Of a DNA stretch of 64,000 bases, positions 4,060 to 59,925 are shown piece by piece. Made by a program: the position numbers and the translations under genes. How positions within the stretch are numbered: the first letter of the stretch is position 1; each line of letters opens with the position of its first letter. The notes beneath the pieces are model-generated. The model did no database searches. It was given only the letters and a program-made list of their open reading frames with translations, and was not told the DNA's origin. Origin of the DNA: Plasmodiophora brassicae (lineage: Eukaryota); assembly GCA_036867785.1 (NCBI GenBank), contig CP145415.1:372001-436000 (forward strand). Reading direction: 5' to 3'.

Positions 4060-6419
4060 GCCTCTGGCTATGCGCTTAATGTCCCCTGATATGCCATTCC
4101 AAATGAACTTCTTCCTTAGAAGTTGTGTCATGTCATTGATGCTGCGATGCGCGAAGCCTGCAGCGTGCGCAATGACTGTTAGCCTGATCCTGAGCTCCAC
4201 ATCTTCTGACGGGATGACTATTTGGCCTCTGCTGTTGACTAGCAGGCCTGCGTCGCTCTTCTTCAGGTCGTTTTGCTTGTTGTTCGTCATGAACTTTGAT
4301 TGCCTCTCTCTGATTTCTTCCTCAGTTGGCCAAACAAGCTTCTTTCCTATCATGGGTTGGACTCGGAATTTGTCAGCGAGTTGCCCCCAGCGGTTGTGGA
4401 TTTCCGGATAACTCACTTGATCCTCATTCTCCCGCCCACTATTGTTGGGTACACCGCGTTGATGGGTTTCCGGATAACTCACTCGATCCTCATTCCCCAC
4501 GTCCCCATTCGAAGCTTCCGGATCACTGGAGCGATCCTCATCACTTCGAATTCGAAGTATTCGGAAGACGTTTGTGGCGTCCTCGTACTTTACTTGTCCG
4601 GTGTCGATTTGGGTTTCCAAATCAGCATCTCTTCTGAGACCATTGTCCACTCCCCATCGTGTCTGCAAATCCGTCCACACATTCTTCTCCCCAGGAATAT
4701 GTTCAATCGTGAACTTGTACTTCCTCAGCTTCATTCCCCAGCGTTCCAACCGCTCTGCTGCTGGTTGTGTGCATTTCTGTGGGTTATATATGTGCATGAG
4801 GTTCCTGTGGTCTGTGTACAGTCTGAATGGTTTTCCCGTTTGTAGGAGATAGTCCAGTTTTTCTACCACGTCCAACAGGGCACTGGCTTCTTTGTCTGGT
4901 GTAGACCAGTTCAACTCTGAGCCTGTGAATTTGTGTCCTGTGAATCCTAGTGGTTGGTGGTTGGCTTCCCACACTGGTTGGTCCTTATCTTCCAATGGGA
5001 TTTGCGTTACCATTCCCGCTCTGTGGAACTTACTGGCGTCTGCAAACACGCACTGAATCATATCCTCTCTGGGATATGCCAGCTGAGTGTTTCTCCCAAT
5101 CAATTCCTTCAGCTCTTCGAATGCTTTGTCATGCAGATCATTCCAGCCATGCCTCTTCAGTCTAACTCCCCCAGCGACTGATTTGGTCCTTCTTGGCTGA
5201 TCCTTCATGGATTTCTCATAGATGTCTTGCAGGGGTGAGACAATCCGACTATATTCCGGTATTGACTTACTCATCCACTGCACTGCATATAGGAATTGCT
5301 GCAAATCTCTTGCAGTTTTGGGACTCTGCATCTGCTGGAGCATTCTGATTCGTTCTGGATCGTGGGATACCCCTTCTGGCGTGAAAATGCGTCCAGCGAA
5401 TTTCACCTTCCTCAAGAAGAAGTCACATTTATCCAGGTTGAACTTCAGATTGTGTTTCTCTGCCAACCGCAGTGTGTTGTCTAACACTCTGAACCATTCT
5501 TGTTCAGTTTCGGCATGCCCCAGAATGTCGTCTATCCAGATGATGAGTGCCTTCATCAGTAGTTCACCGAATATCTCTGCCATCCTGGCCTGAAATTGTG
5601 GCGATGAATTCAACCCTCCTTGGATTGTTCTGGTGGGTGTGAATACTCCTCTGTCCGTTGCGAACGAGAACATTTCCTGACATTCCTTTGCTAGCGGCAT
5701 CAGCCAAAAGCCCTTGAATGCATCCAAGGAAAACCAGTACTTGGACCCTGCCAAGTGTTGTACAATGGCTTCCAGGAATGGCATTGGCCATGCGGTTGCT
5801 TCACACAACTTGTTGACCTCTCTTAGATCAACACACATTCGCCATCCTCTGTTGCCGGGTTTTCGAACAACCACCACTGGTGAGGCCCACTCACTATTGT
5901 GGTTTTCGTACACTAACCCATATTTCTTCAACAGTGATACGAACTGTGCCAGGAACTCACTTTGTTCCTTGCTGTACCTCCGCGCCTTACAACGGTACGG
6001 TCGTGCTCCCTGTCTTAACCGTGTTCGACAAGGTGTGACCTTGGCTGGCGGATCTGGTCCCAGCTTCGTTCTCCAGACATTCCATCTCTTGAAGGCCAAC
6101 CTTCGGAGTCTTCTCTTCCATTTGCGTGGCAACCCCTGTGTCATTGCTCGAGCGATTGCGTTGTCTATGCCCTCTCGAATGTCATTTGGGACATCTTCGC
6201 CAATGGCGACATCGTCCTCATCCTGATCCAATATGTACTCATCGCCGTCACCGCATGACGAGTCTCGATTCATACTTGCAATCAGGTATTCTAACGCCGT
6301 TCTCGGGTCTATGCCTAGTTCTTCTAGGAGATCTTGACCCAGGTAGATTTCCTTCACATACTCCACGTCCCATACGAGACATGTGTGCTTGCGGATCTGC
6401 AGCTCCCCAGCACGCGTAT

Positions 6420-6474
6420 TGTAGACCGGACCGCCCAACTACTCTCGTGGCCTAGTTGGGCGGTCCGGTCTACA
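6420..6474. mobile_element. 55-bp hairpin micro-MITE with 22-bp TIRs and 4-bp TSD GTAT
   Basis: TGTAGACCGGACCGCCCAACTA / 11-nt loop / TAGTTGGGCGGTCCGGTCTACA; GTAT at 6416-6419 and 6475-6478; removing it restores VDILLHTRAGELQIRK in frame. Confidence 0.92.
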
Positions 6475-8208
6475 GTATGCAAGAGGATGTCCACTTGGAT
6501 CTCGTGGGTGGCCTGTCCCACTGCTTCCTCGCTATCCGCCAGAATCAACTTTACTGGTTTCTCCAGTGCTGTCATTGTGGTGTTTGGATGCATCCTGCAT
6601 AGCCTCTTGGCTATTGCCATTGGTATCAGTGTTCTGTCAGCCCCACTGTCTAGTATGGCTGGCCGCGGCTCATCCAGCGCTGATAGCGTGACATTGATCT
6701 GGTTGTTGGCGCCCTGTGCATATCCAGCCTCAATGTCTGCTGCAAGTTGTCTTAACTTGCAGACTTGGGAGTTCTCTGTGCTCGTGCCTCTTTCTGCGTT
6801 TGCAGCTTGCTCGCCCCTCACCTCTTGCATGCTAGGTGTTGGGTGTTCGGCGGCTTCTTCTGCATCCCCAGCGCACTCGCGACTCCATTCCCTACTGCCT
6901 TCCATTGGGTGCTCGCCCTTGCATGGCGCACTGTCAGTGTAGCCGGCATTCTTCTGGGATTTATTTGATCGCTTGGATTTCATCTTCTCGAAGGCATTCT
7001 TCTTCTGTTCATCAGTTGCCTTCAAGCAGTCCCTAAGCGTGTGCGGCCCGTTGCAGAACCAGCATTTGGGTTTGCGTTCCGCGCTGTCTGACTTATGCCT
7101 CTTGGGGTCGGCATGCTGTTCCGGGCCTTCCGGGTTGGCACTGGCGTCGGTCTTCAAACGCCTCTTGCCTCCGCTCTCCTTCTTGAGCGGTGGGACCGTC
7201 TCGTCCTTCTTGGACTGTTTGGTCCTCTTTGCCTCCTTCGCGGCCACCATCTTCTGATAGTGCCGGATTTCGTCGAACATCACGGCCTTCTCTTCAACCA
7301 GTTTTAGCAGCTGGCGAGAGTCGGTTCTCAGCTCCTTTATGCTGGTCTCCGTGATTTCGGTGACGGCCTCCCTAAGCTCGTCTGGCCATATGCCGCGTAG
7401 CAGCAACTTGACCTTGAGCTTTTGGCCCTGTACACCTTCGAACATGTGGTGGCAGGCGTGCTCTTTCGCAAGTCTCGCGAACTGCGCGCCGTAGTCTGCC
7501 ACCCGTGCTGCCGCTTCTGGGATGCTCTTCTTCATCCGCATGTCTCTGAACGTGTCGACAAACTTCACACCACTCTTCTGTGTTGTCGTTGTCATGCGAC
7601 GTTCGAGCATATCCAGCAGCACGTCGTCCGGGATGTTGTCAGTCGTGTAGACTTCGTCCACCCCGTCCAGCGTCATGAGCGAAGCCAGCAGGTGCTCATC
7701 TACCATCGTTCGCACTTTCGCCTCGACGTCGTTCAGCCCCGACTCGCTCATACCTTGCCGGTACAGCTTGTACTGCCGGAACCACTTGACGAGGGCGGCT
7801 TGCCCTGCCGACGTTAGCTTTGGCTTTTTGTTGTCCTCGTCCTTCTGCACGAGGTTCCTCAGTTGGACCATCTTCGTCCTTGTCGATGCGCTTGGCTGCG
7901 ACTGCGGTCTCTGAGGCTGCTGCGTGCTGTCATCATGGCTGTCCATGCTAGACGCGCTCTCTTCCACAAATGATACCGCCTCGCGTTCTGCCTTCTCCCT
8001 CGACTGCTCCAGACCGGCGTTCATGTTGACGGACATGCTCTTCTCGGTGATCTGTGGGCTTCGTGTGTGCACTCGCTGTGTCTGATCTTGGTCGTATTGC
8101 AGAATGGACACGCTGGCCGCCTTCCTGCTTCCGAGACTGCGTCGCGTCGTGCCGTCTGGAACGTGACTCACGGGCGTCTCTCTTCTTGGTTCCGCCGGTA
8201 GTGATCAC

Positions 8209-8520
8209 TGTGACGTCCTTCAAGCTTCGAGACGTACTCGTTGAGAAGCTCGCTCCTAGCCCCTCGGTCTATGACAAGCAGCCTGTCGTCTGACTGCTGA
8301 TTGCCTGTCTGGTGACTATTGTCTGTCTGGTTTATTTCGGGCCGTCTGGCCTCACGCCCTCCACTGCGTCTCCGGAGTCCGTGACGGTCTCCGGAAGTCC
8401 GCGGTCTATTCTGGGACACACACGACTGGTCTGGCGGGACAGCTGACTGTGCTGGTCCGGAACGGATCGGCAATGTTGGCGGGCCGTGTCGGGACAGGGG
8501 TTATGACCGTGAACAACATC
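8209..8520 (-). repeat. Putative 5' LTR of gypsy A
   Basis: Ends ...GTCACA on the minus strand, like the LTR of element B; contains minus-strand AATAAA (~8331); distal end uncertain because no partner LTR is in the window. Confidence 0.55.
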
Positions 8521-8736
8521 ATAGGTGCTGCTATGCTGTACGTATGATACAAGTAGATTGAAGCCCTATATAACTGCATTCCGACTGCGCTGCGCAGTAC
8601 ATCCTCGACATGTATATTTGTACTCCGAGTGCACTGCGTAATACGTCGCTGGACATCCGATCGCTGACAACTATATCGATAATGTATGGGCTAAAATAAT
8701 ACTTGTGCTGTATCCGACTACAATACATTGTGTGTA

Positions 8737-9331
8737 CCACCACGGGAAGATGAATTTGCACGACGGGGACATAATTTTTGCATGACGGGGAACAAACTGA
8801 AGGATGACGAGCACAAAAAAAATGGATCGTGATGCATGTATTTTGTCTCTCTGGAACCGATTGCTGGAGCGTTAGGTGCGTACGCGTGGCGGCGGCTCAG
8901 CGAACATTGGGTCCAAACGAGGAATCTGCTCCGGGTTCATCGCAGGACGACCGACTCGCCTACGCGCGGACGTCTGCGACGATTGCAACCCTCCTACCTA
9001 CCGTGGGATATGAAGTCAGAATTCGGTACGGTAGGTACGTCGGCGATACTGTACGGTATCCGCTTACCGTTATCGGTTGTATCCCTGCCATTGTTCTGGT
9101 GACGTCGTCCTGCAACGGTACGGTAGGTACACAATGAGGCGGCCCGCTCGTCCGTCCCGACTGCATTGAGCCGATCCATTTATTTTGGGCCACTCATCCA
9201 CGCATTTCTTCCCCGCCATCCATTCGTTGTGTTCCCCGCCATCCTTCAATTTGTTCCCCGTCATGTAAAATTGATGTCCCCGCCATGCAAAAATTTCGTC
9301 CCCGTCATGCAAATTCATCTTCCCGTGGTGG
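8737..9331. mobile_element. ~595-bp non-autonomous TIR element (MITE) with TA flanks and subterminal ~21-bp repeats
   Basis: TA|CCACCACGGGAAGATGAATTTGCA at left and TGCAAATTCATCTTCCCGTGGTGG|TA at right; repeated TCCCCGTCAT-like cores in inverted orientation at the two ends. Confidence 0.85.
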
Positions 9332-10080
9332 TACGGATGCCATGTATTTCCAAGACTCCTGAAACGAATGGATACGCGTATTGTATTCACAATTCACAGT
9401 TTAGAATTTTCTGTGACAATACCATCGTCCCTTGCCGTTCGACAGGAGCGTCCTTGCCGTGCTAGATGCCGCCGGATCCAATTGCCGACGTGACGCGCCA
9501 AGTCGATCTTAGTGGGCAGCGTTAAGTTGTCGAACATCGGGTACTGGAGCGCTATTTCACTTCGCAGCACTTCCAGGAAGCAAAAGCATTCTTGCGGAAG
9601 GCCCTGGTGCAGCAACAGACCGACACAGCGGTCAACGATTCCAACGTCGTTTAGGACTGTATTAGGGGGTCGTTTGAGCAGGTGGAAGGTGAAAAGGCGC
9701 CTGTAAAAAGGTGACCACCTCCCACTGGGGGGTGGATGTCGTCAGTAGTGTAGATGGATCAACCAAAGTGAGGGCGATCAAAATTCTACGAACCTTGGAG
9801 GGCTCGGGCTCGTCCAGCTCTTAGACTCGCCCCGGAGTCGCCACTCTGCGAGACCCAGCACTGCCAGGCCGGGGTGAGCTAGCGTTCTGCGAACCACCCT
9901 ACGGTCCTCGGAACCGAGACCGAGGCGCCTGCGGAAAAGCGCAAAACGCAAATAAACTACTGTATAACTATAACTATAACTATAGTGTCCGGACACTACA
10001 TAGAGAGGGCTGCCATTGATCCAAATACAGTATTTGCTTCTAATAAGCCCCGAACTGAAATAATCGGGGTTCGGGGTCAT

Positions 10081-10223
10081 TGTACTACAAAAGTAGTAGC
10101 TCTGACCGTATGCATGGGATCGTCCCACTGTACCTTTGAATAAACAGTTCTCTTATAAGGCGTCTAGCGTGCGTCCAGCGTGTCGGCAGTCGTGTGGACC
10201 GCTGACGGCGCACCGAAAGCACA
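10081..10223 (+). repeat. 5' LTR of gypsy C
   Basis: TGTACTAC...AAGCACA, direct repeat of 28178-28320. Confidence 0.96.
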
Positions 10224-10614
10224 AAAACGTTTTTGTGTCGTGGAGAATTCACCTGAACCTGATCGCGTGAGCCGATCGCCCTGAACACAAGTGAGCCTGA
10301 ACCTGAATCCTGACCGCGACGATGAACGGCGCGGGACGTAGACGGGCGCCTGCTGCAGAGCCGGCCGACCCAGTCGCTATGGAAGAAGTACATGAACAGC
10401 CTGAAGAACAACCCGCTCGGCATGACAACGTCAACGGAGCTGCCGGAAACATGCTGAAGGGGCAAACTCCGATCTTTACACCTGTGACACCCCCGCAATT
10501 GAACAGCACTGACTACAAACGTGTGACAGAATTCTTGACGAAGTACAAGAAGTATGCGGCTCTGATTGAAGATCGACGAAATCGCCACAGCCAGGATATC
10601 TACCCGGAAGCGAT

Positions 10615-13600
10615 TGTGACAAGCCCTAGGCGTCAGGTGGACGACGAACGCGATGTCGACGTACAACACCAAAAAGACAAGTGAAGTGTATTACGCTACT
10701 CAGAAGGCCTTATTGTGAGGCCGCTACATTACCCTCCTCATCGAGGAACGGGTCCAATGCCGTCTACGCGCCCTCTTCGCGAGCGAGACGCTGTGCCAGG
10801 GCAGCCGCGTCCGGGTGAGCGCAGGTACGCAGCAGATGCAGTAAATGTTGCGGAATGTCCTTACGCAAGGATGCGTATGGCTCCCATGAGTCATAATCGT
10901 CGGAGAACCCGCGCCAATGGACGAGCAGTTGCCAGCGATGGGCTTCTTTGCGGATGTCGAGGACTGACTCGACCTCGTATGCCATGTCATGGAAGGCGAT
11001 CTGGTCGACGAGTTCCTCGGTGACATTCAAAAGGGCGTCGGCATATGGCCGGAGGCGTTGAACGTGACATTCGAAAATACTGCCATCGACAAGGTTTTCA
11101 AGGAGCGCGATGTACTCCGACCGCGTGTCGACAGCGCGAGCGGGTCCGCGCCAGAGTAAACTGAGTTTAGGGCCCTCCCGGCGGGGAACAGCGTACAGGT
11201 AATAATCACCAACGATGACGTTGAGCGAAGGGGCCCCCCGGTGAGCGTTGGCACGCTCGTGGTTGGCCGCCCGTTGAGCCGTCACGGCAGAGTGCATGTC
11301 GCGCAACGAATCGCGTAGGGTATGGTCGGAATCGATGACAGTTTGCGTGTCGACAGGAATGTCAAGATACCCCTGTCGAAAAGGGGACCAGAATGGCATC
11401 GAGAGGAGAACTCGGAGCCAGGCCCGTCATGATCTCGATGGGGGCAAGCTGAAGATCGGGGCTGATGCCGTTGTTCAGGGCGTATCGTAAAAGCCGCAGG
11501 AAGGTGGGCCATTCCTTGAAATGGACCCGGAACTCGGAACACCACGAGCGAAGGATAGCGAGGAGGTGACGGTTGGCGGTCTCAACACCAGCGTGTGTCC
11601 AGGGACAATAAGCCAAGAGATGGACAACACCAAAACGGGTGAACCAGTCAAACAGAGAGTCAGCGGCGTGGCGAGCAGTCGGAGTAGTGGTCGCAAACAA
11701 GTCGACGTAACCACTGAACTTGTCCCGTGTAACAAGGACGTGTTCGTCGCCAGACAGGGATGGTCCGACGTAAAGATAAACGAACTCAAGAACAGCATTG
11801 GGCCGATCAGCCGACGGATTCGACCCAAGCGGACGTGGAATGAGGGCGCCATGTTTGCTCGGAAGACAGTGAAGACACTGGCGCACGAATGCTTCGGCGT
11901 CGCGCTTCATACCGCGCCAATAAAAACGGGCAGCGAGAGCCTGATAAGTAGCCTCCATGCCGCGGTGTCCAGCCGAGCCGCAATGAGCGATGATGAGAAT
12001 GCGCAGCTGGAGGTCGATAGCGTCATGCGGGATCCAACAGACATTGCCCTCGGCGAAGAGGCCAACGTCGTTCGGGGAAAACTGACGACCATCAGTATCC
12101 ACGGGAGCGATCTGATTAGGGACGTGCTGTTGCTGAGCTGCACGAATAATGTCTGGGGTCGGGAAAGCGAAATCTGGGGACCCCAGCGGGCAGACGGTGC
12201 CGACAGGAACGCGGCCGACGCGACGAACATGCAAGATTTCGGGAACAGCGTCCGCGATGGGTGCCGCCCAGCGGGTGCACATATCGCTCCACACATTGAG
12301 GTGTCCAGGAATGTGTTCGATAACATAGTCGTGCGCGCTCAGCCGGAGTGCCCAGCGATGTAGCTTGTCGAGGGTGTGGCGTTTGAGAGTTGTGCCAGAG
12401 GATGACGGATCGAAGATGAATGATAAATTCCGATGATCGGTAAACATGCGAAATGGACGTGATGTGATCAAGAGATATGCAAAGCGGTCCACTGCATCGA
12501 CGATGGGATACGCTTCCTTTTCAGGGAGTGTCCATCGACTCGCGGCGCCGCGGAATGGGGTGCTGTAGAAGGCTAGTGGCGCGTGGGCCTGCTCCGGGAG
12601 CGGTTTAGCAAGCTCGTCGGGATGAAGTTGTGTAACCAAGATAGAACAATAACCGGTCGACGCGTCAGTGAACAGACAGCGCACGTGATCGGGATGAGGA
12701 TGTGCGAGCAGGACACTGTGTTCGAGGGCTGTGAGCATGTGCCGGAAAGCCTGCTCAACAGCAGGGGTCCACAACGCCTCCGGAATAGATATACGTTGAG
12801 CCGCACGCTTGGACCGATTGCGAGACGCATGCAGTAAGGTGGACAAAAGTTCCTGCAGCGGCTGGATGAGGCGGGCGAAATCAGGTACGTGGGATCGGAA
12901 CCACCCGGCACCGCAGACAAACTGCATGAGATCAGCGGCGGTGTGCGGGCGACCAATCTTAGCGAGGCCGTGAACACGAGCAGGGTCGTGGCGAGTACCT
13001 TCGGCAGAGTAAATCATACCGCACCATTTGGCTTCCGTGAGATAAAACTGACAACGAGCGGCGTTCAGTTTCAACCCCATGTCAAGACAGCGCCCCAAGA
13101 AGATGCGCAGCTTATGTAGGTGGTCCATTTCAGATGTTGAATGTCCCAGAAAATCGTCAGCAAAGATGAGAAGATCGCGGAGCGACAGCGCGGGACGGAA
13201 GACTTGGTTCATAGAACCTTGAAAGATAAAGAGAGCGTCACCATAGCCCTGAGGTAGACGCTGAGGAGTCAACGGCCCCAAAGGTGAGAGGAGAGTCAGG
13301 GCGTCGATATCACCGGTGATGGCGATCTGCCAGAAACCTTTGAATGCATCGGCCGTGAAGAATAGAGAGGAGCCCACTAAGTACTCCCCAAGGGCAGGCA
13401 GATATGGGATTGGGTATGATGAACGTAGCATTTGAGCATTGGGCTGGCGAAGATCCACCACGGCGCGGAACGTGCGCCCGGCACCGACTTTCGCGACGGC
13501 GAAAGAAGGTGAACCCCAGGGAGACGAAGGGTTTGGAATGACGAAACCGAACCGAACGAGGTCGGTGTAGTGGGTCGTCAGGAAATCCTGATGGAGGGGA

Positions 13601-15697
13601 GGTAGCGGTCGGGACCGAGACATAACAGGCTGGGCGTCCGGTTTGAGGCGCACTTCAGCAGGAGGAAGTTTGACGGGAGGGTCAGGACCCAATTGAACCC
13701 GGAACACGTCGAAGTACTCGACCAGGAGAAGTTGACGCAACTCGGAGAGGAAAGTAGCAGAAGCATGGTGCTCAGCAGCGTCATCGATGCAACGCTGGAG
13801 CGCGGTACGAACCGCGTCAGGATCAAGGGCGCCAATGGGCACCACGTCGAGATCGTGGGCAGGAAAGGACGGATCTACAAGGCTGAGGTCCTCTGATGGA
13901 TCGCCGGCGAACGGAGCAGAACGACGCGCGAGACTTCGTAGTTGTTCCTCGACGTCAATGCCCAGCGCGACGAGGAGAGGTCGACCGAGTAGAACCGCGG
14001 GCATGGTAGTGTCCGCGATGTACACAAGATGATCGTGTACGATGACGGGTCCAGCACTCGTCAGGATAGTAATGGACGGGATAACCGCCTGCCGAGATGC
14101 AGCGACGGGAGCGCCGTCGGCCATAGAAAAGGAGATGTGTGCGTCGGTGACGGGGATAGACGCGGCACTCATCGCGGCCCAGTGGTTAGCCCCAATGATG
14201 GTACAGTCGGCACCGTCGTCGACGCCGGCTGAGAAATCAAATGCGAGATCGCGGACGCTGAAACGAACCATCTGAGCGCGCGAGGATTCAGACGTCAAGC
14301 CAGATGAAGATGAAGCCGTCAGATGACAGGCCTGCGCGTGAGGCGAAGGGGAAGACGGACCCACATCGTACGTCGAAGGGGAGGGCGACGTACACGGGGT
14401 CGTGTCGGGTGGGACCACAGGACGAAGCCAAACATCGGGGTAGTCGCAATGAACGGCGAGCCGCCGTACATTAGCGCGTGTGCGAGGCGCGCCAGACGGT
14501 TGCCTGGCGCCGGGAGCGGCAGGCCCCGAAGACGCGGGACGAGCGGCAGCCCCCGAAGACGCGGAAGCGACCCCTGTACCAGCATCAGCATTGCGGGCGA
14601 CGCCTCCCGACGAGAGTCCCTGGGTGTCGGCGGTCGGCGCAGCAAGCGGTGAGGCGCTGTTGTCAGGATCGGCCGGCACCAGAGGCCGAAGTGGATTGCG
14701 CCACGGTGCGCGCGGCGGCTCTGCCTGACGTGTACCGTCGGACGTCGTCCCCGTTCGTCGCCGGTGGGCATTGTGATGCGCAGTAGATTCGTCGACAGCC
14801 GGTTTCGGATTACGTGGCTGAGGCGCCGACAGAGGAGGATCGCGGGAAGTTACCTCATCTTCCGGGGCGAACATGTAGTAGTGTGTGGTCACCTCCAGGA
14901 GAAGATTGAAAAATGCATCTCGGTCAGTCTTGCACTCGATGCGTTGTATGGCGACGAGCTTCGAGACGCGATTCCGTAACATCGGCGGCCGGAGCGCTTT
15001 GATCATCAGGCGAATCTGCTCTGCTTGTAATTCAGCATGTTTGTTGAAATGCTCGGTGAGGCCATTGGAGGCCAGAATGTCGCATTGATCAAAGAGGTCG
15101 GCAACACTCTCGGTGGCGTCTCCCAGGTGTCGAAAGGAGATGCCCTTAAATAAATCCGTGCTGGTCTTCGGGACCGTCACACGCGTGGCCGTAAAGGCAA
15201 GCAACTCGTTCAAAATATCTGAGTCGGAGGCCGTATCCCACGAAGCCGAAGATTTTCGTAGGGTACGAACCCAAAAATTCGTGATGACCGATGGCTTGAT
15301 CCGATCGCGAATGGATCGAGGGCGATAGTGCTCCCCGCCCGGCAATGCTTTCAAGTCGGCGACAGCCGATAAATATAATTTCCAATCTTGAATAAACTCT
15401 ATCATGACGTCGCGATTGAAGCGATCTAGGTATGGTGCCCTGACGGCCTCATACTGGATCGGATTCATCTTCTACGAAACCCCTGATAATCGGACAGACG
15501 ATCGGGCACACACGCAGCGTTTGCGTTGGCCGAGGAAAGGAGGCACGACAGCACCTGTTAGGCCGTAGTGTCGTATTGCGCAATGTGACAAGCCCTAGGC
15601 GTCAGGTGGACGACGAACGCGATGTCGACGTACAACACCAAAAAGACAAGTGAAGTGTATTACGCTACTCAGAAGGCCTTATTGTGAGGCCGCTACA
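10615..15697 (-). mobile_element. Ty3/gypsy chromodomain element B, defective integrase, inserted in gag of C
   Basis: Identical 114-bp LTRs 10615-10728 and 15584-15697; TSD GCGAT (10610-10614, 15698-15702); PPT TGAGGAGGGTAA; ORF 11362-15468 (RT ADAFKGFW, FADD; RNaseH) plus frameshifted 10764-11399 (chromodomain VHWRGF..DSWEP). Confidence 0.96.
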
Positions 15698-18600
15698 GCG
15701 ATGAAGAACTGTATGCCTGACAGGATCCTCAACAGCATTGCGAAATTTCGTATTCGGAAACCTGTTCAGAACATTACTGATGACGACATCAAAGGATACC
15801 TCGTGAAGATTCAGCGAGAAGCATTGTGCGAGGACATGAACGATTGCGACATCGATGAGCTGATACGAAAGACCATCGTTATGGACATGAAAATTGGTAA
15901 CTGTGAAGCCCGAGTTAACGCTCACTTTGGCAAATTTGATCAGTTTATCGAAGACCATGGCCTTGAATCTCATTTCTCTGGATCCGACGCTAAGGTAAAG
16001 CGCAAGATCAAATTGCTTCGAAAAGGTATACGTCCAGAAATCCTACGCAAACAACTGAAGAAGGATATGAAGTATGGTAACTATGAACACTGCTGGAAGG
16101 ACGAAATGGCGTTCTTTGACCTTGTAGACAAACGAGCCAAAGAGCAGAACCGATTCTTCCCGAAGAAAGTTCCCGATGATAACAACAATCGAAAGAATGG
16201 TAAGACCACCAATGCTCGGTCTAACGGGAAAAAATGAACCACACAGCACCACGAAGAATGACGACATCAACTCGCCGAAGAAGAAATTGAATGGTAAGAA
16301 TGAGACCAATCGGATTCCTGAACATATCAGACAGAAATATGAGGGTAAACCACCCCCTGAAGGCGGTTGCGCTTTCTGTCAAGGACCTCATTGGCTACCG
16401 ATGTGCACCAAGGTAAGTAAAACAGAACGGCAAGAGTTACTGAAGAAAATGAAATCAGACAAAACACCGTCTAATGACGAAACGACGACACACAGTGGCA
16501 ATGAAGCAGCGAAGACGAAGAATAAGCGGTTGGCAACGAGTACATCAACCCTAGGAACTGTCCGAGTTCACGAGTGCGCTACGTTCAACTACGAGTTTGA
16601 TAGTGCATGCACGAAGACAACGCTTTCACTGGAGCAGCTATCGCAGATCCAACGAGAAAAATTTGTTGCGGTAAGAATGTTTGAGAAACCACTGATGAGT
16701 ACCCTTGCGATAGGCAACGTACAAACGAAGATTGTTGGGTACGCTCTGCTTGACCTCAAGTTCACGTCGCAGCATGGAACTGTTGCAACCATCAGACGGG
16801 TCGAGTGCGCGATCTCTCAAGAACCTATGAGTGATGGTACTGTCTTAGTAGGCGTTGCTGAATTGGATGCTTTAGGGATCAACCCCGACACCATCTTTGA
16901 AGAGAAATATTCGAACACCTCGGAAACTGATGTGACTACTTACAGCCGAGATCCAGCGATTGAAATGTTACGCAGCAAGCGATTGCAGATGATCGCCCCA
17001 CAGGATGAAGATGAGGAACAAGATGATCCTGATCCTGGAAAGGATTATGACGTTGAAGTTGGGATATTCAACAAAACTGAGGTACAAATTGCATGTGACA
17101 ACATGATTGAACGTGCACTTCAGGAAGGATTCCCTCCCGACGACAAAGAACGATTGCGCTCTATAGTGCACAAATACCCAATATGGCGAACGAAGATCGA
17201 CAATATGCCACCGGCTAAGGTAACTCCGATGAAACTGCATGTCAAAGCAGATGTTAGGCCGGTTGTATGTCAACCACCAAAGTACCCGGAGACACACCAA
17301 GCGTTTCTCCACCAGCACACAACGACACTGATGGAAAACGGTCTCGTGTACCGCAATCCACATGCGCGTTTCGCCTCACGAGCGAATGTCCATGAGAAGA
17401 AAGACTTCGGTAACCGTGGATATCGAATGACCGCGAATTTTAAACCTGTGAATAGGCAGATTGACCGTATCAATTGGCCCATGCCTCACATTGATGTTAT
17501 TCTGATGTATTTACGTTCAGCTACGATTTTCATGCTGTTTGATGCATTTAAGGGATATTGGCAATTCCCTTTGCACCCTGATTCTCAAGAGTTCTGTGCC
17601 TTCATGACTCACGAAGGTGTTTTTACGCCAACTCGTATCATGCAAGGTATTATTGATGCCGTATTCGCCTTCCAGTCTGGAATGCAAGAAGTTCTTGGCG
17701 ACCTGCTGTATCTAGCCGCATTGTTGTGGATCGATGACGTACTGGGCTACGTCCGGGATCTCGCCGAATACTTCGTTATATTGGAGCGTATTCTGAAACG
17801 TTTCCATGAGTATGGTGTCATGTTGAATCCGAACCGGTGCCACCTGTGGTTGCGGAAAGTGACCTGGTGCGGCCGTGTTATATCTGCTGAAGGAATATCG
17901 TTTGATGAGTCATTGGTCAATGCTCTGAAAACCTTGGCAACTCCTCAGAATGCTGCTGATCTTCAGCAATTTCTATGTGCGCTCAATTGGATGCGTACTT
18001 CGATTCCTCGTTTTTCTGAACGCGTTCATCCCTTACAACAACTACTTCTGGAATCGTCACGTAAGATTCGCAGCCTGAAGAAACGTCAGTTACGCCGTGT
18101 CACGCTTAGTTCGGTTGGATGGAATGAGGAACATACACGCTGTTTCGAACGATTGAAGCAACAATTGGAGGAATTGATGGTGATGGCCCACCCGAAAGAT
18201 GGGTTTATTCGATGTATATTCCCTGATGCTTCGGACCATCATTGGTCTGTCTTCTTGACACAAATTCCTTGTGATGATTTGCCGAAACCACTTGTCGATC
18301 AACGTCATGAACCGATGGCTTTCATTTCTGGTTCGTTCCGTCACAATCAGTGTCGATGGGCAATCATTGAGAAGGAAGGTTTTGCGATTATCGAAGGATG
18401 CTATCGCTACCGACACTACTTGCATTCGGCTGATGCTTTTCGTATCTTCACTGATCATCGCAACTTGATGTATATTATGGACCCATTTCGTTTCTCTTCG
18501 AATTTGAGTCGCATGACTGGAGATCGAATTGAGAGATGGCGATTGCAATTCTGCGGCTCCGGGCAAAAACGCGGCAAACTGCTTTTTGGCCATTTTTGGC

Positions 18601-18720
18601 GTCCTGGGCATCGATCAACGCCATTTTTAAAAATCTTGTGGATTGCGCTGTGTATCCGTTGAGTTTGAGTGTCAACTGTCATACTTTCTATTCTTGGTCA
18701 TGGGTAAGCCCAACGTGCAC

Positions 18721-18753
18721 GGGGCGGGGGGGGGGGGGGGGGGGGGGGGGGGG
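18721..18753 (+). repeat. Poly-G tract (G4-C-G28)
   Basis: Directly visible in the sequence. Confidence 0.95.
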
Positions 18754-19447
18754 ATACGGAGTCCGTGGCGACGGGATGGCGTGTCCCGTATCCGCAGGCG
18801 TAAGCTCCGTAAATAGCATATTCACGGGGAGGCCCGGGTACTGTATCCCATTGTCGTTGCAACATGTTCGGTCGCCTTCTCACCTCGCTCCAATGCCTGC
18901 GCGTCCTGCTGCCTGCGGTCGTGCTGTACAGTCCGGCGACATCTGCCGACATGCGCCCAGCGGTTGATCCAAACCGGGACGCACACGTCCCGACGCCACG
19001 CAAGCGGCAGCGCCGCCCGGAACTGCACAAGAAGAACACCAAAGGCCTGATCATCAAGCCGACAGCACTGGTTCTCGTTGACGAACCGCCTGTTGCTGGC
19101 GACGCCCGTCTCCCGCTGGCGCCATGCTGTGCGCTGGAATGCCGTCAATGGGTCGCGACGTGCCCGACTGTAGCCTCCGCAATTACCCGGTTCATGTCGC
19201 TCACCACACAGCTCGAGCAGAACAAGTTCCTGCACCAGCGCATTGAGCGGTTCGAGTCGACTCGAGGCAAGCTGGCGTTTCGCTACGTGCTCGACAGCCC
19301 CCTGAACGTACCGCGTCGAGTTTGTCTGCCAATTTGGCTACAGTCGTTCATGATTGGAAAGCGACGCCTGGCAACACTGCGAAAGCACTACAAGAACCCG
19401 GACGGCTACAGCGGCCAACCCGTCGAGGAGAACCGCGGCAAGCACGG

Positions 19448-22400
19448 TGTGCTAACGCCGCCGCTGCCCACTACGGGGGCGGTCGGTCGCAAGAGTCGGC
19501 GCCTGGTGATATAACGAACTGATGTATTTGGACAGGATCGTCACAGCAAGGGCCGCTGCGGGGTCGAGTACGGTCATGATCATGTGACCGGGTGGCAGCA
19601 GCATCTGAGCAGCATCATCTGAGTACTGGTACTCTGGATGAACACTCCCCGTGTTAGAAATCTGCTAACAGTCGTGAGCAGAGCGGGTCTCCTTCGGCTT
19701 GTCGTTCGAGGAAGGCCCTGACGATATCAGGAACATCGGCCGCCATGACCGAGTAAGGTTCCCATGAATTGTCGGTGGCATCGAATCCGATCCAGTTGAT
19801 CAGTAGTTCAGTGTCACCTGACGTAGAGTTGACTCGAATGTCCTCGACTGCGTTGACTTGGTAAGCCACGCCGGTGAGCGCGATGTTGTGCTTCAGGGAA
19901 GAGGTGACATTCAAGTGCGCATCTGCATAGAACATTAAGCGCTGGGCGTGTACATCTGAGATACGATCAGTCAAGAGATCTCGAACTCGATACACCCAGT
20001 CGTTGATGGTGTCGATAATCTGGGCAGGTCCAGTCCAGTTGTACTCGGACTTGGAGTGCTTGCCATGGTTGGCCACGAGAACATAGTCGCCCGTCGTGAA
20101 GTTGATCTCGCGAACATTGCGTCGGCGACGCCGGGCGCGTTGCTTGAGATCACGTAGATGGGTGCGTGTACGTGCCACTGCTTTGTGCATGTCCTCGAGA
20201 GAATCGATAAGTTCCGTCGTCATTTCCTTGAGACGGTCAGGGGTCAACGGTACGTCGATAACCGCGTCGATGCGTTTGTTGAAGATAATCGAGATAGGTG
20301 TCGAGGGTGGCAAACCCGTAAACATCGTGACAGGCGCGTAGCCCACACTTGATCGAACAGTGTGATTTACCGTCATGTTGATCAGCGGAAGGACATACGG
20401 CCAATCCTGGAATGGAAGATTTAGCTCGGAGAGGAGGGACTTCAGCAGAAAGAGAAGCCGCTTGTTGACAACCTCAACCGTGCCGTTCGCCCAAGGTGTG
20501 TAGGCAGTTGTGAAATGATGGTTGCAGTGTAACCGGCTATTAAGCTCGGCGATAACCGCGTTTTTGAAGTGTGTGCCGCGGTCAGAGACATGTTGGAAAA
20601 CAATGCCGAAACGTTTGAACCAATCCAGAAGAGATTCGGCGACAACGCTGTGATCCGCGAATTGACAAGGAATTAACTCGACGAATGCTGTAGCGTCGTC
20701 CTTCAGAACCAGAACATAACGAAGTTGATGAGAATCGCCTGGACGAGGTTTGGATAAGAACAGAAAGTCATAGTGGATGACCTTATTGGGCTTGTCCGCA
20801 TGCATAGCCGTGCCATAAGGTCGGGGGATCATCGAATCTTTGTTGCGTAGGCAGTGTAAGCATTTGTCCACAAATGCACGAACAAAGGAATCGAGATCAG
20901 GCCACCAGAAGAGTTGCGCGATGCTCGAAATAGTCGATGCAGCAAGTTGATGACCAGACAGTCCCATATGTGAAATCACTGCGATGCGTAGCTGCAGTGC
21001 ATGTGATGGTACCCAGAGTTGATTGTCTGGAGTACGCCAGCCAGATTCCGGGCTAAGGTGGAGAGACATGTCCCCTTCGAGTTGGAGAATATCAGAAACG
21101 GCAGATAGGTCGTGTTGGCGAATGTAGTCGGTCTGAGCGTTACTAATCTCGTCGACAGACGGCCAGATAAACTCATCGGTCATCTTGTAATCGTCGAAGT
21201 CAAGATTAATTGCCATATGACGAATAGAACGGAACGATGGAGGGGAAAATGAGGAGAGTGGTTGCAGGGCGACGCCCCACCGCGTGGCGAGGTCGGCCCA
21301 AACGTTGTCCTCCCCAGCAATGTGCTCAATGTGAAAATCTAGGTCGATAATCTGAAGTCGCCAGCGCTCCAAGCGATCGCCGGTCGTCCGACTAATTCGT
21401 GCAACCGAGGCTGGGTTCAGAATGAAAACCAAATTACGGTGGTCTGTGAAGATTCGAAGTGCCAGCTTTGACATAGAGATGAAGTGTCTGAGGCGATAGC
21501 AGCCTTCAATGATGGCGTAGGCCTCCTTCTCAATGGTCGCCCACTTCAATTGAGAACCACGGAATGTCCCCGAGATGAACGACAAAGGTTCGTGGTGTTG
21601 CTCACCGTACGGGAGATCAATATCTTCCGGAGGGATCTGCGACAGGAAAACAGACCAGAAACGGTCACTCGCATCCGGAAAGAGACACATGATCCATTCG
21701 TCCTTGGTGTGCGCCAGCGTCATGGCCTCCGATAGTCGATGCTTCAGAGAATTGAAACTGGTGAGATGGTCAGTGGTCCAGCCGATGTCGGCTAAACGAA
21801 CTCGACGTAGGTGTGATTTCTTCAGACTGCTGACAGAACGAGAAGCGGACAGAAGTAGATCCTGTAGCGGATGAACATGTGCCGCGAATTGAGGGATAAC
21901 AGAACGGACCCAATTGAGGCCCGAGAGGAACTGTTGGAGATCAGCAGCCGTGATAGGAGTTGATAGATCGTGCAAGGCGTTGAGATACGAGCGATCGAAC
22001 GACACTCCATCAGCGGATATAACGCGACCGCACCATGTCACTGAAGTGAGATATAACTGGCAGCGATCAGGGTTGAGTTTAACTCCAAACTCGTCGAAAG
22101 CGTTGAGAAGAGATTCGAGTGTGTCCATGTAGGCTCCGAATCCAGATACGTAGCCGAGGATATCGTCGATCCAGAGTAGGGCGCAGATATATAGAAGTTT
22201 CCCCAACACCTGTTGCATTCCCGCCTGGAACGCAAACACGCAATCAGCGATTCCCTGGATGATGCGCCTGGGTGTAAACGTGGCGATGTGCGTCATGAAC
22301 GAGCAGGCCTCCTGCGAATCAGGGTGCAACGGAAATTGCCAATAGCCTTTAAAGGCATCGAACAGCATGAAGATGGTCGCGGAACGTAGGTAGGTCAGGA

Positions 22401-24783
22401 TGATGTCGATGTGAGGCATCGGCCATGCAATGCGTTCGGTCTGTTTGTTGACGGCTTCATTGATGTCGACGGTCAGCCGATGGCCGCGAACCTCCGTGTC
22501 CTTCTTGTCGACGACCAGACACGGCGACGCGTACCTGCTGTGCGGATTGCGGTACACAAAATCGTTTTCCGCCAAGGTTCCTACGTGATCATCCATGAAT
22601 TTTTGATGTTCGAGGGTATACCTTCGTGTTCGGCAACGAACAGGACGAGCATCTGCTTTGAAGTGTAGTTTCAGTGGACTTACTTTCGCAGGTGGATCAC
22701 GGCCAAGCTTCGTTCGCCATATGTCTTTGTGTCGATTGACAGTTGTGCGTAGACGCGGGACTTGATCGTTAGGGAAACCGGAGTCAGTTGCACGTTGTAT
22801 CATCCGGTCTATTGCCCTGTCCACGTCTGTATCGGAGTGTTCTCCGATTTCGACATCATAGTCGTCACCCGGATCATTGGTGTCCAATTGGGGCTCATGA
22901 TCGCGAGTTGTTCCACTTACCTCCGGGTGTCTTACCGCTCTCATCGTGATCCCTTGACCACCTGGGGCGTGACGTTCCGGGGTCGGATCCGCTTCGATGA
23001 TGATAGGACCATTTGCCTCGATTAACATCTCCTTCAGTTGTGTAGCTGGATTGATACCCAACGCGTCCAGTTCCGGGGCTCCTAAAAGGACAATGTCATC
23101 AGATAGGTCTTCGCGACATACGTTGATTTCCCGCCCGCGTAGATGTGCAGGTTTGCCATGCGAAGGTGGGACAATGGTGATGTCCACGATCGCTGTGGCG
23201 ACAATTGTTGTCGTAGCCCCGATCGTTGCAAGTTTCGCCTCCGTTGGATGGTCGAACACTTTGACTGGGACATGCTGGATGGCTTGAATCCGTAGCAGTT
23301 GCGATTGCGAAATGACGGTCTTCGTCGCACCACTATCGGCTTCGAATGGAAGGTCGAGCGAGTTCTGGAAGCGAAGTCTCATAGGGGACGGTGTTGACGG
23401 CGACGGCGGGCCCATGCGCTTTGCCGTGTCTGCGTTGCCCTTACTCTCCTCCTTCTCTTTGCGCTCTTTCTGGAACTTTTCAATGGCAGCTTTGCGTTCT
23501 CCTTGAGTTGCCTTCGGGCACACTTGGACCCAGTGCTGCTCCTTGCAGATTAGGCAACCTGCCTTTGGAGGATCCTTACCTTCGAAACGTTTTCGGATGT
23601 GCTCGGGGATGTCCCTCGATTCGTCTTTCGTTTGCGATGTGGACGATTGAGCTGTCTTCAGTCCGATCGGATTTGTCGGATGCTTGCCGCCATTCCTATT
23701 CGGAGCAACAACGTCCTTACCTTTCTTACCTGCAGGTGGGGACATGGTCTGCGCTGGAGACTTCTTCTTCTCAGCTTGCAGCCGGAAGTGTTTGTCCTGC
23801 TCTTTGGCAAGACGGTCGACGAGGTCGAAGAATTTGAGCTCGTCCTTCTCAGCGTCCCTGCACCCTCCGAACTCGATCGCGCGTTCGACTAGAACCGCAA
23901 GGTCAGTGGGACGGATACCTCCGCGTAATACCTTGATCTTGCGCTTGGTTCCTTTCGTTCCTTTGGCGTATGTGTCTTGTAGCCCATAGTCGTCGATTAG
24001 CTCATCGAACTTGGCGAAGAAAGACGTGACACGTTCCTCAATACTCTTGATTGACAGGTTCATGACCACTGTCTTCGTGAGAAGCGCCTTGATGTCTGTC
24101 GAACTCTCGACATCAGCCTCCCTGCGTTGGACTGACCTCAAGTAGCTCATGATGTCGCCATCCGTGATCGTGCTGGCGGGTTGACGTAGGCGATATTTCG
24201 ACATCCCTCTGAGGACGTCCTCGGTAATGCATGACTTCACCGTTGGCGGATGAATATCCTCCTTGTAGATCAGTCGGCGCTCGTTAACGATCTCGACGTG
24301 TTTCCTATATTTCTTGAGGAAATCGTTAATTCCGTCCTTGGCCGTAAGGCTCAGGGTACGTAGGATGGGCGGTTTCAAAGGCATAAAGATCGGGCTCTTA
24401 CCGTGCAGGTTTGTTGACTGAAGCCCTCGATCGATTTCGTCATCTGTCGACGATTCATGCTCCTTGGCCTCGGCGTCGGAGTTGGTCCTGGCGTCGTCCT
24501 CCATCTGTAGACGAACGGGCGCTCTGCGGCCACCTCCTGCCATTAAGTGAGTTCGTTTGCTTGGGGCTCTTTGCGCAAGAAGCTTCTGTGCTAACGCCGC
24601 CGCTGCCCACTACGGGGGCGGTCGGTCGCAAGAGTCGGCGCCTGGTGATATAACGAACTGATGTATTTGGACAGGATCGTCACAGCAAGGGCCGCTGCGG
24701 GGTCGAGTACGGTCATGATCATGTGACCGGGTGGCAGCAGCATCTGAGCAGCATCATCTGAGTACTGGTACTCTGGATGAACA
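19448..24783 (-). mobile_element. Intact Ty3/gypsy chromodomain element D, inserted in the Sola transposase
   Basis: Identical 197-bp LTRs 19448-19644 and 24587-24783; TSD CACGG (19443-19447, 24784-24788); PPT-like AACACGGGGAG. Confidence 0.97.
19654..24543 (-). CDS. Gag-pol polyprotein of element D (1629 aa; Gag, zinc knuckle, PR, RT, RNase H, IN, chromodomain)
   Basis: CLICKEQHWVQVC; ADSGAT; FDAFKGYW; WIDD; FPDAS; FTDHRNL; H..GH...CLHC; HYDF, SDRGTHF, NGTVE; INWIGF..NSWEP. Confidence 0.97.
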   Translation of the reverse strand: MAGGGRRAPVRLQMEDDARTNSDAEAKEHESSTDDEIDRGLQSTNLHGKSPIFMPLKPPILRTLSLTAKDGINDFLKKYRKHVEIVNERRLIYKEDIHPPTVKSCITEDVLRGMSKYRLRQPASTITDGDIMSYLRSVQRREADVESSTDIKALLTKTVVMNLSIKSIEERVTSFFAKFDELIDDYGLQDTYAKGTKGTKRKIKVLRGGIRPTDLAVLVERAIEFGGCRDAEKDELKFFDLVDRLAKEQDKHFRLQAEKKKSPAQTMSPPAGKKGKDVVAPNRNGGKHPTNPIGLKTAQSSTSQTKDESRDIPEHIRKRFEGKDPPKAGCLICKEQHWVQVCPKATQGERKAAIEKFQKERKEKEESKGNADTAKRMGPPSPSTPSPMRLRFQNSLDLPFEADSGATKTVISQSQLLRIQAIQHVPVKVFDHPTEAKLATIGATTTIVATAIVDITIVPPSHGKPAHLRGREINVCREDLSDDIVLLGAPELDALGINPATQLKEMLIEANGPIIIEADPTPERHAPGGQGITMRAVRHPEVSGTTRDHEPQLDTNDPGDDYDVEIGEHSDTDVDRAIDRMIQRATDSGFPNDQVPRLRTTVNRHKDIWRTKLGRDPPAKVSPLKLHFKADARPVRCRTRRYTLEHQKFMDDHVGTLAENDFVYRNPHSRYASPCLVVDKKDTEVRGHRLTVDINEAVNKQTERIAWPMPHIDIILTYLRSATIFMLFDAFKGYWQFPLHPDSQEACSFMTHIATFTPRRIIQGIADCVFAFQAGMQQVLGKLLYICALLWIDDILGYVSGFGAYMDTLESLLNAFDEFGVKLNPDRCQLYLTSVTWCGRVISADGVSFDRSYLNALHDLSTPITAADLQQFLSGLNWVRSVIPQFAAHVHPLQDLLLSASRSVSSLKKSHLRRVRLADIGWTTDHLTSFNSLKHRLSEAMTLAHTKDEWIMCLFPDASDRFWSVFLSQIPPEDIDLPYGEQHHEPLSFISGTFRGSQLKWATIEKEAYAIIEGCYRLRHFISMSKLALRIFTDHRNLVFILNPASVARISRTTGDRLERWRLQIIDLDFHIEHIAGEDNVWADLATRWGVALQPLSSFSPPSFRSIRHMAINLDFDDYKMTDEFIWPSVDEISNAQTDYIRQHDLSAVSDILQLEGDMSLHLSPESGWRTPDNQLWVPSHALQLRIAVISHMGLSGHQLAASTISSIAQLFWWPDLDSFVRAFVDKCLHCLRNKDSMIPRPYGTAMHADKPNKVIHYDFLFLSKPRPGDSHQLRYVLVLKDDATAFVELIPCQFADHSVVAESLLDWFKRFGIVFQHVSDRGTHFKNAVIAELNSRLHCNHHFTTAYTPWANGTVEVVNKRLLFLLKSLLSELNLPFQDWPYVLPLINMTVNHTVRSSVGYAPVTMFTGLPPSTPISIIFNKRIDAVIDVPLTPDRLKEMTTELIDSLEDMHKAVARTRTHLRDLKQRARRRRRNVREINFTTGDYVLVANHGKHSKSEYNWTGPAQIIDTINDWVYRVRDLLTDRISDVHAQRLMFYADAHLNVTSSLKHNIALTGVAYQVNAVEDIRVNSTSGDTELLINWIGFDATDNSWEPYSVMAADVPDIVRAFLERQAEGDPLCSRLLADF

Positions 24784-27700: not shown

Positions 27701-28177
27701 ACCAGCGTAATGTGAAACCGATCAACTTCTCTATTGGTGATTATGTCCTGGTTGCTAAGCGTTCTACTGCGCGCAAGACTACGTATAATTGGACTGGTCC
27801 TTACCAAATCGTTGAAACTGTCAATCCACATGTCTACACTGTCCAAGACTTGATTACGAAAGATCTGTCTACCGTACATGCGCAACGTTTGAAATTCTAC
27901 CATGATTCATCTCTGAATGTCACTTCGGACCTGCTACACAATATTGCTTTGACTGGTAACACCTACGTGATTGAACAAATTGATGATATTCGAATCGATC
28001 CTGTATCTGGAGATGTCCAACTACACGTTCGTTGGCTAGGTTTTCAGGATGATGATGCCACATGGGAACCATTTGAAACCATCAAAGATGATACTCCTGA
28101 CATCGTCCGACAATTTCTGGCATCACGCTCTGACACATTGTCCTGCACCCTGTTGCACGATTTTTGAAACAGGGGAG

Positions 28178-28320
28178 TGTACTACAAAAGTAGTAGCTCT
28201 GACCGTATGCATGGGATCGTCCCACTGTACCTTTGAATAGACAGTTCTCTTATAAGGCGTCTAGCGTGCGTCCAGCGTGTCGGCAGTCGTGTGGACCGCT
28301 GACGGCGCACCGAAAGCACA
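28178..28320 (+). repeat. 3' LTR of gypsy C
   Basis: Direct repeat of 10081-10223, preceded by the PPT and followed by the TSD. Confidence 0.96.
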
Positions 28321-29735: not shown

Positions 29736-29861
29736 TTTTGTCCCCGTGATCCAGTATTTTGTCCCCGTGGTCCAAATATTTTGTCCCCGTGGTCCAAATA
29801 TTTTGTCCCGTGATCCAAATATTTTGTCCCTGTATAATCCAAATATTTCTTCCGGTGGTTG
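29736..29861. repeat. Five ~22-bp tandem repeats (TTTTGTCCCCGTGRTCCAAATA) plus terminus; right end of a TIR element related to 8737-9331
   Basis: The array ends TCTTCCGGTGGTTG|TA, versus TCTTCCCGTGGTGG|TA at 9331; no left end identified. Confidence 0.7.
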
Positions 29862-59630: not shown

Positions 59631-59925
59631 TAATGCCAACGGAATCCGTGACGTACCGGATCCGGTTGGGGCGCGTCGTTTGGGCGGGTCAACGTACGCG
59701 ACGCTCTCGATATGCAACCGGTGATATTCAACCTCCGCGCAGGGCCCCACCGGTATCGGGGGCCCACCATGGCCGATGGCCAGGTAAGGCTATGCCACGA
59801 CGGGACCTGCTTCGATGAAGGAGCGCGCCCGCCCCGCCAGTCACAGGTCACCAATGGCACATGCGTGGATCGAGTACGCTGCGATCTCTGCCCATATACA
59901 GTAGGTAGACAGGGACCGAAGGAGC

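Follow-up and report, generated by a model that had tools for sequence, protein, structure and literature searches.

How does a retrotransposon start reverse transcription when its leader does not offer the usual site for a tRNA? This question is raised by a 64,000-nt stretch of Plasmodiophora brassicae contig CP145415.1 (in the following, the window), which contains Ty3/gypsy elements whose 5′ long terminal repeats (LTRs) are directly followed by a perfect palindrome. To our knowledge, textbook minus-strand priming is limited to tRNA 3′ ends, tRNA halves, and cis self-priming of the Tf1 type. For several groups of chromoviruses and copia elements, the published verdict is "no PBS found" (PBS, primer-binding site), which was left unexplained in the accessible parts of the respective articles (PMC5006619, PMC5445492, PMC2864245).

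LTR pairs in the window were located by a direct-repeat search and inspection of the junctions. Thereby, three complete LTR retrotransposons (B, C, and D) were found, which form a nest with B and D both sitting inside C. Their LTRs start with TG and end with CA, a purine tract lies upstream of every 3′ LTR, and junction inspection revealed a 5-bp target duplication around each element. A further element (A) is 3′-truncated and has only the reverse transcriptase (RT) and RNase H domains; neither an integrase nor a second LTR of A was found inside the window. Across the elements, Pfam domains for RT, RNase H, integrase, and a C-terminal chromodomain were detected, in D in the order RVT_1, RT_RNaseH, Integrase_H2C2, rve, and Chromo, and in B and C as the same set split over several open reading frames (ORFs). 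By their domain content, A–D are Ty3/gypsy chromoviruses (Metaviridae) of P. brassicae. The host is corroborated by one of its genes in the window, whose product matches a P. brassicae protein at 100% identity across the aligned part, with Spongospora following at 70%. They were originally predicted to be four divergent gypsy elements, in agreement with RT-RNase H identities to D of only 60% for C, 39% for A, and 37% for B. B, C, and D are apparently functional, because their LTRs are identical or one base apart, the D ORF is intact, empty sites exist for B and C, and the sequencing depth of D is high; all three are, by these marks, recently active.

Palindromes at the LTR–leader boundary

In A–D, the tRNA primer-binding site is evidently replaced by a self-complementary element of 10–18 nt (Table 1). 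The helix starts 0–4 bases inside the U5 end, with the dyad 4–5 nt past the LTR; in C, the 18-nt palindrome extends 4 bases into the LTR. The junction sequences and coordinates from which the original prediction started proved correct on re-reading. Palindromes of at least 10 nt occur 119 times in the window, i.e. at about 0.0019 per position, compared to a mean of 76.7 (range 57–105) after block shuffling. By our own arithmetic, the chance that three of three verified window elements carry a palindrome centred 4–5 nt after the LTR is about 5 × 10⁻⁸. The LTR-abutting palindromes are confirmed as real and lie far beyond chance.

The LTR ends of B, C, and D had been taken as fixed by paired LTRs, and they are now additionally supported by the 5-bp duplications, by empty sites (B, C), and by contig breaks (D). 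For independent checks of LTR ends, contigs of four public runs were used, with window stretches uncovered there regarded as uninformative; contigs are labelled by run (X6, X10, and so on). An X6 contig jumps from 10608 to 15697, a step of 5088 nt that equals B plus one target duplication. X10 and X11 contigs depart from the window at 10080, just before the C LTR (143 nt, one mismatch within the pair), into sequence resembling that from 28326 onward. For D, the repeat match 19448–19645/24587–24784 is identical, and the true LTR is 197 nt long because the extra G of the match belongs to the target duplication. A separate 197-nt X10 contig corresponds to 24587–24783, exactly the D LTR ends, and X6 contigs have alternative flanks at 19447/19448, 19644, and 24587.

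D has a single stop-to-stop frame of 1651 residues with the first Met at residue 23. Its depth in X6 and X10 is 135–1010 versus 0–17 for its flanks, and the LTR contig has about 1.7 times the internal depth, as for DNA of a multi-copy family. Among the runs listed, D was present in 20 from 11 studies, including soil and plant metagenomes, at about 10 to 100 times the neighbouring depth, and therefore represents a high-copy family. D also bears a second palindrome directly after the first one, identical to the B core TTGCGCAA despite the B–D RT identity of only 37%. The occurrence of TTGCGCAA in both elements may go back to a site of a common ancestor that was shifted by 8 nt, or D may have an additional place for pairing here.

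To extend the comparison beyond the window, metagenome contigs were scanned with the RT-RNase H alignment; 328 stretches matched, 102 of which encode relatives, and 80 loci were kept (L001–L080), most relative-bearing contigs being short. A 5′ LTR–leader junction was recognizable in 18 of the 80 loci, which represent 10 families (F1, F1b, and F2–F9). As anticipated for other members of the clade, a palindrome abuts the LTR in all 10. Together with the four window elements, 14 of 14 recognised families thus carry a palindrome at the position of the primer-binding site, and the predicted conservation of structure without sequence extends over 8 distinct palindromes, four of which fall within the A clade (F1–F5 and F9 at 57–67% RT identity to A). 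The last LTR base lies within the helix in 13 of the 14, where the T after the core pairs with the final LTR A as predicted; the exception is F1b, whose 10-nt core is followed by C instead of T. Also, none of the 14 leaders begins with TGG, the first bases of the usual gypsy site, which is customary for the group and not defining (Tf1 and Skipper deviate).

The F6 LTR end was verified by an LTR pair, and those of F1, F3, and F7 by the same end meeting unrelated flanks at L008:5462, at L010:5789, and at L037 (minus strand) 9759 together with L060:649. Counting only independently verified families (B, C, D, F1, F3, F6, and F7), the abutting palindrome of at least 10 nt is present in seven of seven. 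The LTR end of A had been designated as inferred and remains so; it is supported by F1 and F3 of the same clade, whose LTR ends are verified and show an identical geometry. The loci of the relatives hold 277 palindromes in 240,629 nt versus about 235 expected, i.e. no general enrichment. Among the 8 palindromes, compensatory changes occur at every pair position, e.g. between AAGAATTCTT and AAGATATCTT. These comparisons show that selection acts on self-complementarity, not on a particular sequence.

LTR ends served as anchors. An automated procedure, which started from the first ATG of the upstream ORF and picked the largest palindrome up to 90 nt away, was dropped as too noisy, since ORFs were broken and the A and B leaders are longer than 90 nt. 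L017 (GAGAAGCTTCTC, located 11 nt upstream of an ATG) and L073 (distantly related, with LTRs of 836 nt) were left out of all counts, as their LTR ends could not be fixed. An inverted copy in L002 was considered to break off where the palindrome ends on its 3′ side; this reading was rejected, since the sequence has a leader and an ATG of its own and constitutes the separate family F1b. Among viral contigs, a scan yielded no relatives, and a protein atlas search gave gypsy-like clusters without usable taxa. F1 and F2 have a further palindrome of 10 nt, TCTACGTAGA, in U5 at a distance of about 11–17 nt from the LTR end, and F4, F6, and F7 have a short hairpin at this position; such hairpins or second palindromes do not occur in all families. 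The U5 structure may act together with the LTR-abutting palindrome.

Pairing partners and a possible priming mechanism

A perfect palindrome that has no spacer finds its partner in a second copy of the same sequence. The predicted energies of the homoduplexes range from −9.0 to −22.7 kcal/mol. A hairpin, in contrast, is not stable for 7 of 10 palindromes (0.0 kcal/mol), and weak hairpins are predicted only for some, such as C (18 nt, −4.0 kcal/mol) and F9 (14 nt, −3.2 kcal/mol). AU-rich palindromes measure 12–14 nt compared to 10 nt for most others, as if duplex stability were being maintained. A near-copy of the core (at most one edit) within 70 nt was present in one of 13 families, namely A (GTGAGTCAC, with a one-base insertion, 29 nt downstream), and folding of 100 nt around the junctions of 13 families gave no common structure around the palindrome. 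Two-RNA pairing is favoured over fold-back because only the intermolecular duplex is stable for most palindromes. Of the two routes originally proposed, the annealing of two genomes hence fits better. The other route would require a cut behind the palindrome, whose 3′ half would then fold back within the same molecule, pair with the 5′ half and the U5 end, and prime. The weak hairpins of C and F9 speak for this route, but the seven palindromes without a stable hairpin speak against it, and we regard it as distinctly improbable.

Our tentative explanation, held at slightly below even probability, is trans self-priming, in which the duplex formed by two element RNAs at the palindrome would be cut to yield the primer. 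Two RNA copies would anneal via the palindrome, as at a retroviral dimer initiation site, e.g. the HIV-1 kissing-loop palindrome, a short 5′-leader sequence through which two genomic RNAs are joined. The RT/RNase H of the element, or another nuclease, would then cut one strand within the RNA duplex where the core ends on its 3′ side, and the freed 3′ OH of the 5′ fragment (R-U5-palindrome) would prime minus-strand strong-stop synthesis on the U5 of the partner. The site would thereby be primer-binding site and primer in one, with dimerisation coupled to priming. The additional pair between the last LTR A and the following T (up to CACA/TGTG in C) would hold the scissile bond inside the helix. 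The cDNA would have the same sequence wherever the primer ends in the 3′ arm, because this arm is complementary to the 5′ arm together with the U5 end. Tf1 self-primers are reportedly able to act in trans between co-packaged RNAs. A precedent for the cutting step is given by the accessible text on Tf1, in which the primer is generated through cleavage of an RNA duplex by RNase H (PMC7175516).

Other primers and other roles of the palindrome have to be weighed against trans self-priming. A host tRNA, tRNA fragment, or small RNA could be the primer, as half-tRNA priming occurs in copia lineages according to the available part of PMC6317226. The first 17 post-LTR bases are complementary to the two tRNAs of the window (Ile-AAT and Glu-TTC) over at most 7 nt, which by estimate is chance level; the matches are of 6–7 nt, including 7 nt between D and tRNA-Ile, and the predicted lack of a tRNA-type site is thereby upheld for these two tRNAs. 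Moreover, four different palindromes coexist in one host and 8 exist overall, which would require equally many palindromic host RNAs, and we give this possibility hardly any credence. Cis self-priming as in Tf1/sushi, by pairing of the first transcript bases inside the LTR with the site, would suit the chromovirus type that the elements share with this group. However, the best Watson–Crick run in the LTR complementary to the first 14 post-LTR bases was 4–7 nt in nine of nine families and was reached by 14–100% of shuffled LTRs. This bears out the earlier observation that the LTRs lack a Tf1-type complement, and since a site of this type does not need a palindrome, such priming appears very improbable.

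The palindrome could also be a dimerisation or packaging signal only, abutting U5 by happenstance while another primer binds elsewhere in the leader. Covarying self-complementarity is just what a dimer initiation site shows, this analogy is raised in the available text of Donnart et al. (PMC5445492), and the second palindrome of D just downstream would suit it. Nevertheless, we consider this role alone unlikely: the dyad is fixed at 4–5 nt from the LTR end with the last LTR base in 13 of 14 helices, a registry with the minus-strand start that dimerisation would not need, and there is no TGG and little room for another primer site where leaders are very short (ATG 8–38 nt past the palindrome in F1, F3, F4, and F9). 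Binding of a dimeric protein (RT, Gag, integrase, or a host factor) to the site as RNA or DNA, e.g. for initiation without a nucleic-acid primer, would account for the dyad symmetry typical of dimer-bound sites and for the fixed position relative to the LTR end. It is nonetheless quite improbable, as eight unrelated sequences with GC-rich and AT-rich cores would require eight specificities, four of them in one host, and covariation that keeps only pairing argues for a nucleic-acid helix.

Several points weigh against trans self-priming and its generality. The available contigs cannot show RNA ends: contigs of an RNA library (X19) cover parts of D, including 24470–24648 over the LTR–leader boundary, but yielded no call of a transcription start or of R, also because DNA is possibly present in the library. 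A helix of 10 bp is short, and the F6/F7 homoduplex reaches only −9.0 kcal/mol. By our own reasoning, cutting both strands of the symmetric duplex would leave no template that keeps the site for the second transfer; therefore, asymmetric cutting or a third RNA would be needed. The comparison with tRNAs included only two from the host. The LTR ends of F1b, F2, F4, F5, F8, and F9 were recognised partly via the palindrome itself, with additional backing by the purine tract, the TG start, and a nearby gag ATG. Finally, in 62 of the 80 loci the junction lies off the contig or was unrecognised, so that palindrome-free clade members could exist.

Features of the window and neighbouring sequences

Positions of the element features are compiled in Table 1 together with the junctions of the metagenome families.

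Table 1. Element features in the window and LTR–leader junctions of the metagenome families. Junctions are given in sense orientation as LTR end/palindromic core/following bases; numbers without locus name are window positions.
Feature	Position or locus	Strand	Junction, support, and remarks
A internal region	4057..8208	-	leader, gag-like ORF 6354-8204, RT-RNase H ORF 4057-6438
A palindrome AGTGATCACT, 10 nt	8200..8209	-	GTCACA/GTGATCAC/T; last LTR base A, core, then T; LTR end inferred
A putative 5′ LTR, 288 nt, TGTCCCG...GTCACA	8209..8496	-	inner end inferred; outer edge from one X10 contig
B 3′ LTR, 114 nt	10615..10728	-	target duplication ATCGC; purine-rich tract upstream in sense 10729-10741
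B gag-pol	10764..15471	-	RT, RNase H, integrase zinc domain in 11362-15471; chromodomain in 10764-11426
B palindrome ATTGCGCAAT, 10 nt	15575..15584	-	GTCACA/TTGCGCAA/T; last LTR A, core, then T
B 5′ LTR, 114 nt, identical to 3′ LTR	15584..15697	-	LTR pair, ATCGC, empty site
C 5′ LTR, 143 nt	10081..10223	+	target duplication GTCAT; empty-site ends in X10, X11
C palindrome CACAAAAACGTTTTTGTG, 18 nt	10220..10237	+	GCACA/AAAACGTTTT/TGTG; last 4 LTR bases + first 14 leader bases
C 3′ LTR	28178..28320	+	purine tract AAACAGGGGAG just before, 28167-28177
D 3′ LTR, 197 nt	19448..19644	-	LTR pair; purine tract 19645-19652; target duplication CCGTG
D gag-pol ORF, intact	19654..24543	-	first ATG 24543-24541; RT, RNase H, integrase, chromodomain
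D second palindrome TTGCGCAA	24571..24578	-	directly after first palindrome; identical to B core
D palindrome AGAAGCTTCT, 10 nt	24578..24587	-	AGCACA/GAAGCTTC/T; last LTR A, core, then T
D 5′ LTR, 197 nt, identical to 3′ LTR	24587..24783	-	LTR pair, CCGTG; separate X10 contig
F1 junction	L028, L010		GCTACA/AAGAATTCTT/T
F1b junction	L002	-	GCTACA/AAGAATTCTT/C
F2 junction	L004, L005, L006, L008		GCTCTA/AAGAATTCTT/TA
F3 junction	L003		GCTATA/AAGAATTCTT/TA
F4 junction	L007		GCCACA/AAGAATTCTT/T
F5 junction	L002		GCTACA/AAGATATCTT/T
F6 junction	L071; L037 with one mismatch, LTRs 92.6% alike		GGAACA/TTGATCAA/T
F7 junction	L053, L062, L074, L077, L079		GTACA/TTGATCAA/T
F8 junction	L052		GCCACA/TTGATCAA/TG
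F9 junction	L049		GACACA/GAACGTTC/TGT
Second palindrome TCTACGTAGA in U5	L028 3645-3654, L010 505-514, L005 4125-4134, L008 5436-5445		

The outer LTR edge of A at 8496/8497 is the point where one X10 contig diverges. A low-depth X10 contig links 8497 to 15583 on opposite strands, thereby placing this edge one base from the start of the palindrome and leader of B; the join could be an insertion of the A family at a B-family LTR–leader boundary in another genome, or a chimera. Near 4050, the truncated 3′ side of A is adjoined by a Ty1/copia fragment (694–4006, plus strand) with SH3_retrovirus and RVT_2 domains. This fragment was unusable as a copia control for the primer site, as its 5′ LTR lies outside the window.

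Inside C, between the D insertion and the integrase ORF of C, an ORF at 24781–26286 (plus strand) encodes DUF7869, which is not a usual gypsy domain and may belong to a further nested insertion. In the C LTR, AATAAA was seen by eye upstream of TATAAG (10137–10160). Use of both motifs would reduce R to a very short stretch or to nothing, and LTRs of 114–197 nt leave little room for U3-R-U5; TATA-like and AATAAA motifs of the LTRs were not used as evidence. Just left of the C insertion site, 58-nt inverted repeats (8734–8791/9277–9334, 93% identical) enclose about 500 nt, and similar sequence is also present right of C at 29691–29812. The repeats may represent a small foldback or MITE-like element next to which C inserted. 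Further downstream, tandem duplicates about 1.5 kb apart with 77–84% identity (59929–62846) overlap ORFs, one of which (59905–61326) has an RGS domain.

Comparison with known elements and implications

The palindromes were originally put forward as a feature for which no description was known, and in this respect the prediction has to be corrected: Donnart et al. 2017 (PMC5445492) gave the same geometry for fungal GalEa elements of the Ty1/copia type. In the accessible part of that article, to which all statements on GalEa refer, these elements have no tRNA site. Instead, 9 bp directly after the 5′ LTR (CHSeq1, CTGATCAGT or CTAATTAGT) are palindromic with the final LTR A, and a near-complement 12–41 bp downstream (CHSeq2) forms a hairpin with CHSeq1 that has one conserved mismatch, the pair being termed the Conserved Hairpin Site. 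Variants alter paired positions, a U5 complement was not found, and according to the authors the mechanism is unknown and agrees with none of the known models. The elements studied here are like GalEa in that, for 13 of 14 families, the final LTR A forms part of the palindrome that abuts the LTR; A (GTGATCACT) and F6–F8 (TTGATCAAT) moreover share the TGATCA core. Unlike GalEa, the elements studied here are gypsy chromoviruses of a rhizarian host (with RVT_1, gypsy-type RNase H, and a chromodomain, not RVT_2), 12 of 13 families lack a downstream partner resembling CHSeq2, the cores measure 8 or 10 nt with the helix reaching up to 4 nt into the LTR, and the covariation is broader.

In the literature searched, as far as its text was accessible, the term Conserved Hairpin Site occurred in only one further paper, a study of TRIM elements in bivalves, and a full-text search for "palindromic PBS" and "palindromic primer binding" returned no paper. 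The accessible part of a 2026 preprint on P. brassicae pangenomes names gypsy and copia elements as the main repeats without mentioning primer sites. An LTR-abutting palindrome in rhizarian gypsy elements without a downstream hairpin partner thus appears to be undescribed in this literature, with the precedent in copia.

As judged from the available text on Tf1/sushi (PMC7175516), the elements share with this group the chromovirus type and a short tRNA-independent RNA–RNA duplex at the position of the primer-binding site, and the palindrome helix is comparable in size to the 11-bp primer duplex of Tf1. The Tf1 site, however, pairs with the 5′ end of its own transcript in the LTR, whereas the site described here pairs only with itself. 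Other chromoviruses without a tRNA site or a Tf1-type complement are Skipper of Dictyostelium, with a polypyrimidine leader (PMC5006619), and SM-Tcn1 of Selaginella, with a T-rich leader (PMC2864245), for both of which the authors proposed unknown priming. Tcn2–5 of Cryptococcus, also chromoviruses with unexplained priming, have pyrimidine-rich leaders according to the part of PMC7175516 that mentions them. The elements of P. brassicae and their relatives resemble Skipper and SM-Tcn1 in what they lack, but have palindromes in place of pyrimidine tracts. They also differ from retroviral dimer initiation sites, which lie in a hairpin loop downstream of the tRNA site, while the palindrome takes the position of the primer-binding site and abuts U5 in leaders devoid of a tRNA site.

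Two superfamilies, copia and gypsy, are now known to have a covarying helix in fixed register with the U5 end, and LTR annotation tools that demand a tRNA site will overlook or downgrade families bearing such palindromes. The locus provides a clean, apparently active test case in D, with its identical LTRs and intact frame. It is possible, although we would hold it only loosely, that LTR-abutting palindromes represent a third general start of reverse transcription, in which genomes anneal, RNase H cuts, and the 5′ fragment primes the other genome, and that this start arose independently in fungal copia elements and in gypsy elements of Rhizaria and of unknown soil and freshwater hosts. Repression by 3′-tRNA fragments acts through the tRNA site, as stated in the accessible part of a recent report (10.64898/2026.01.22.698655). 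If the palindrome is both primer and primer-binding site, the elements would escape this repression by removing its target, and it would be explained how they dispense with a host tRNA. Genome dimerisation would then be tied to initiation, so that dimerisation, packaging, and priming would become one event.

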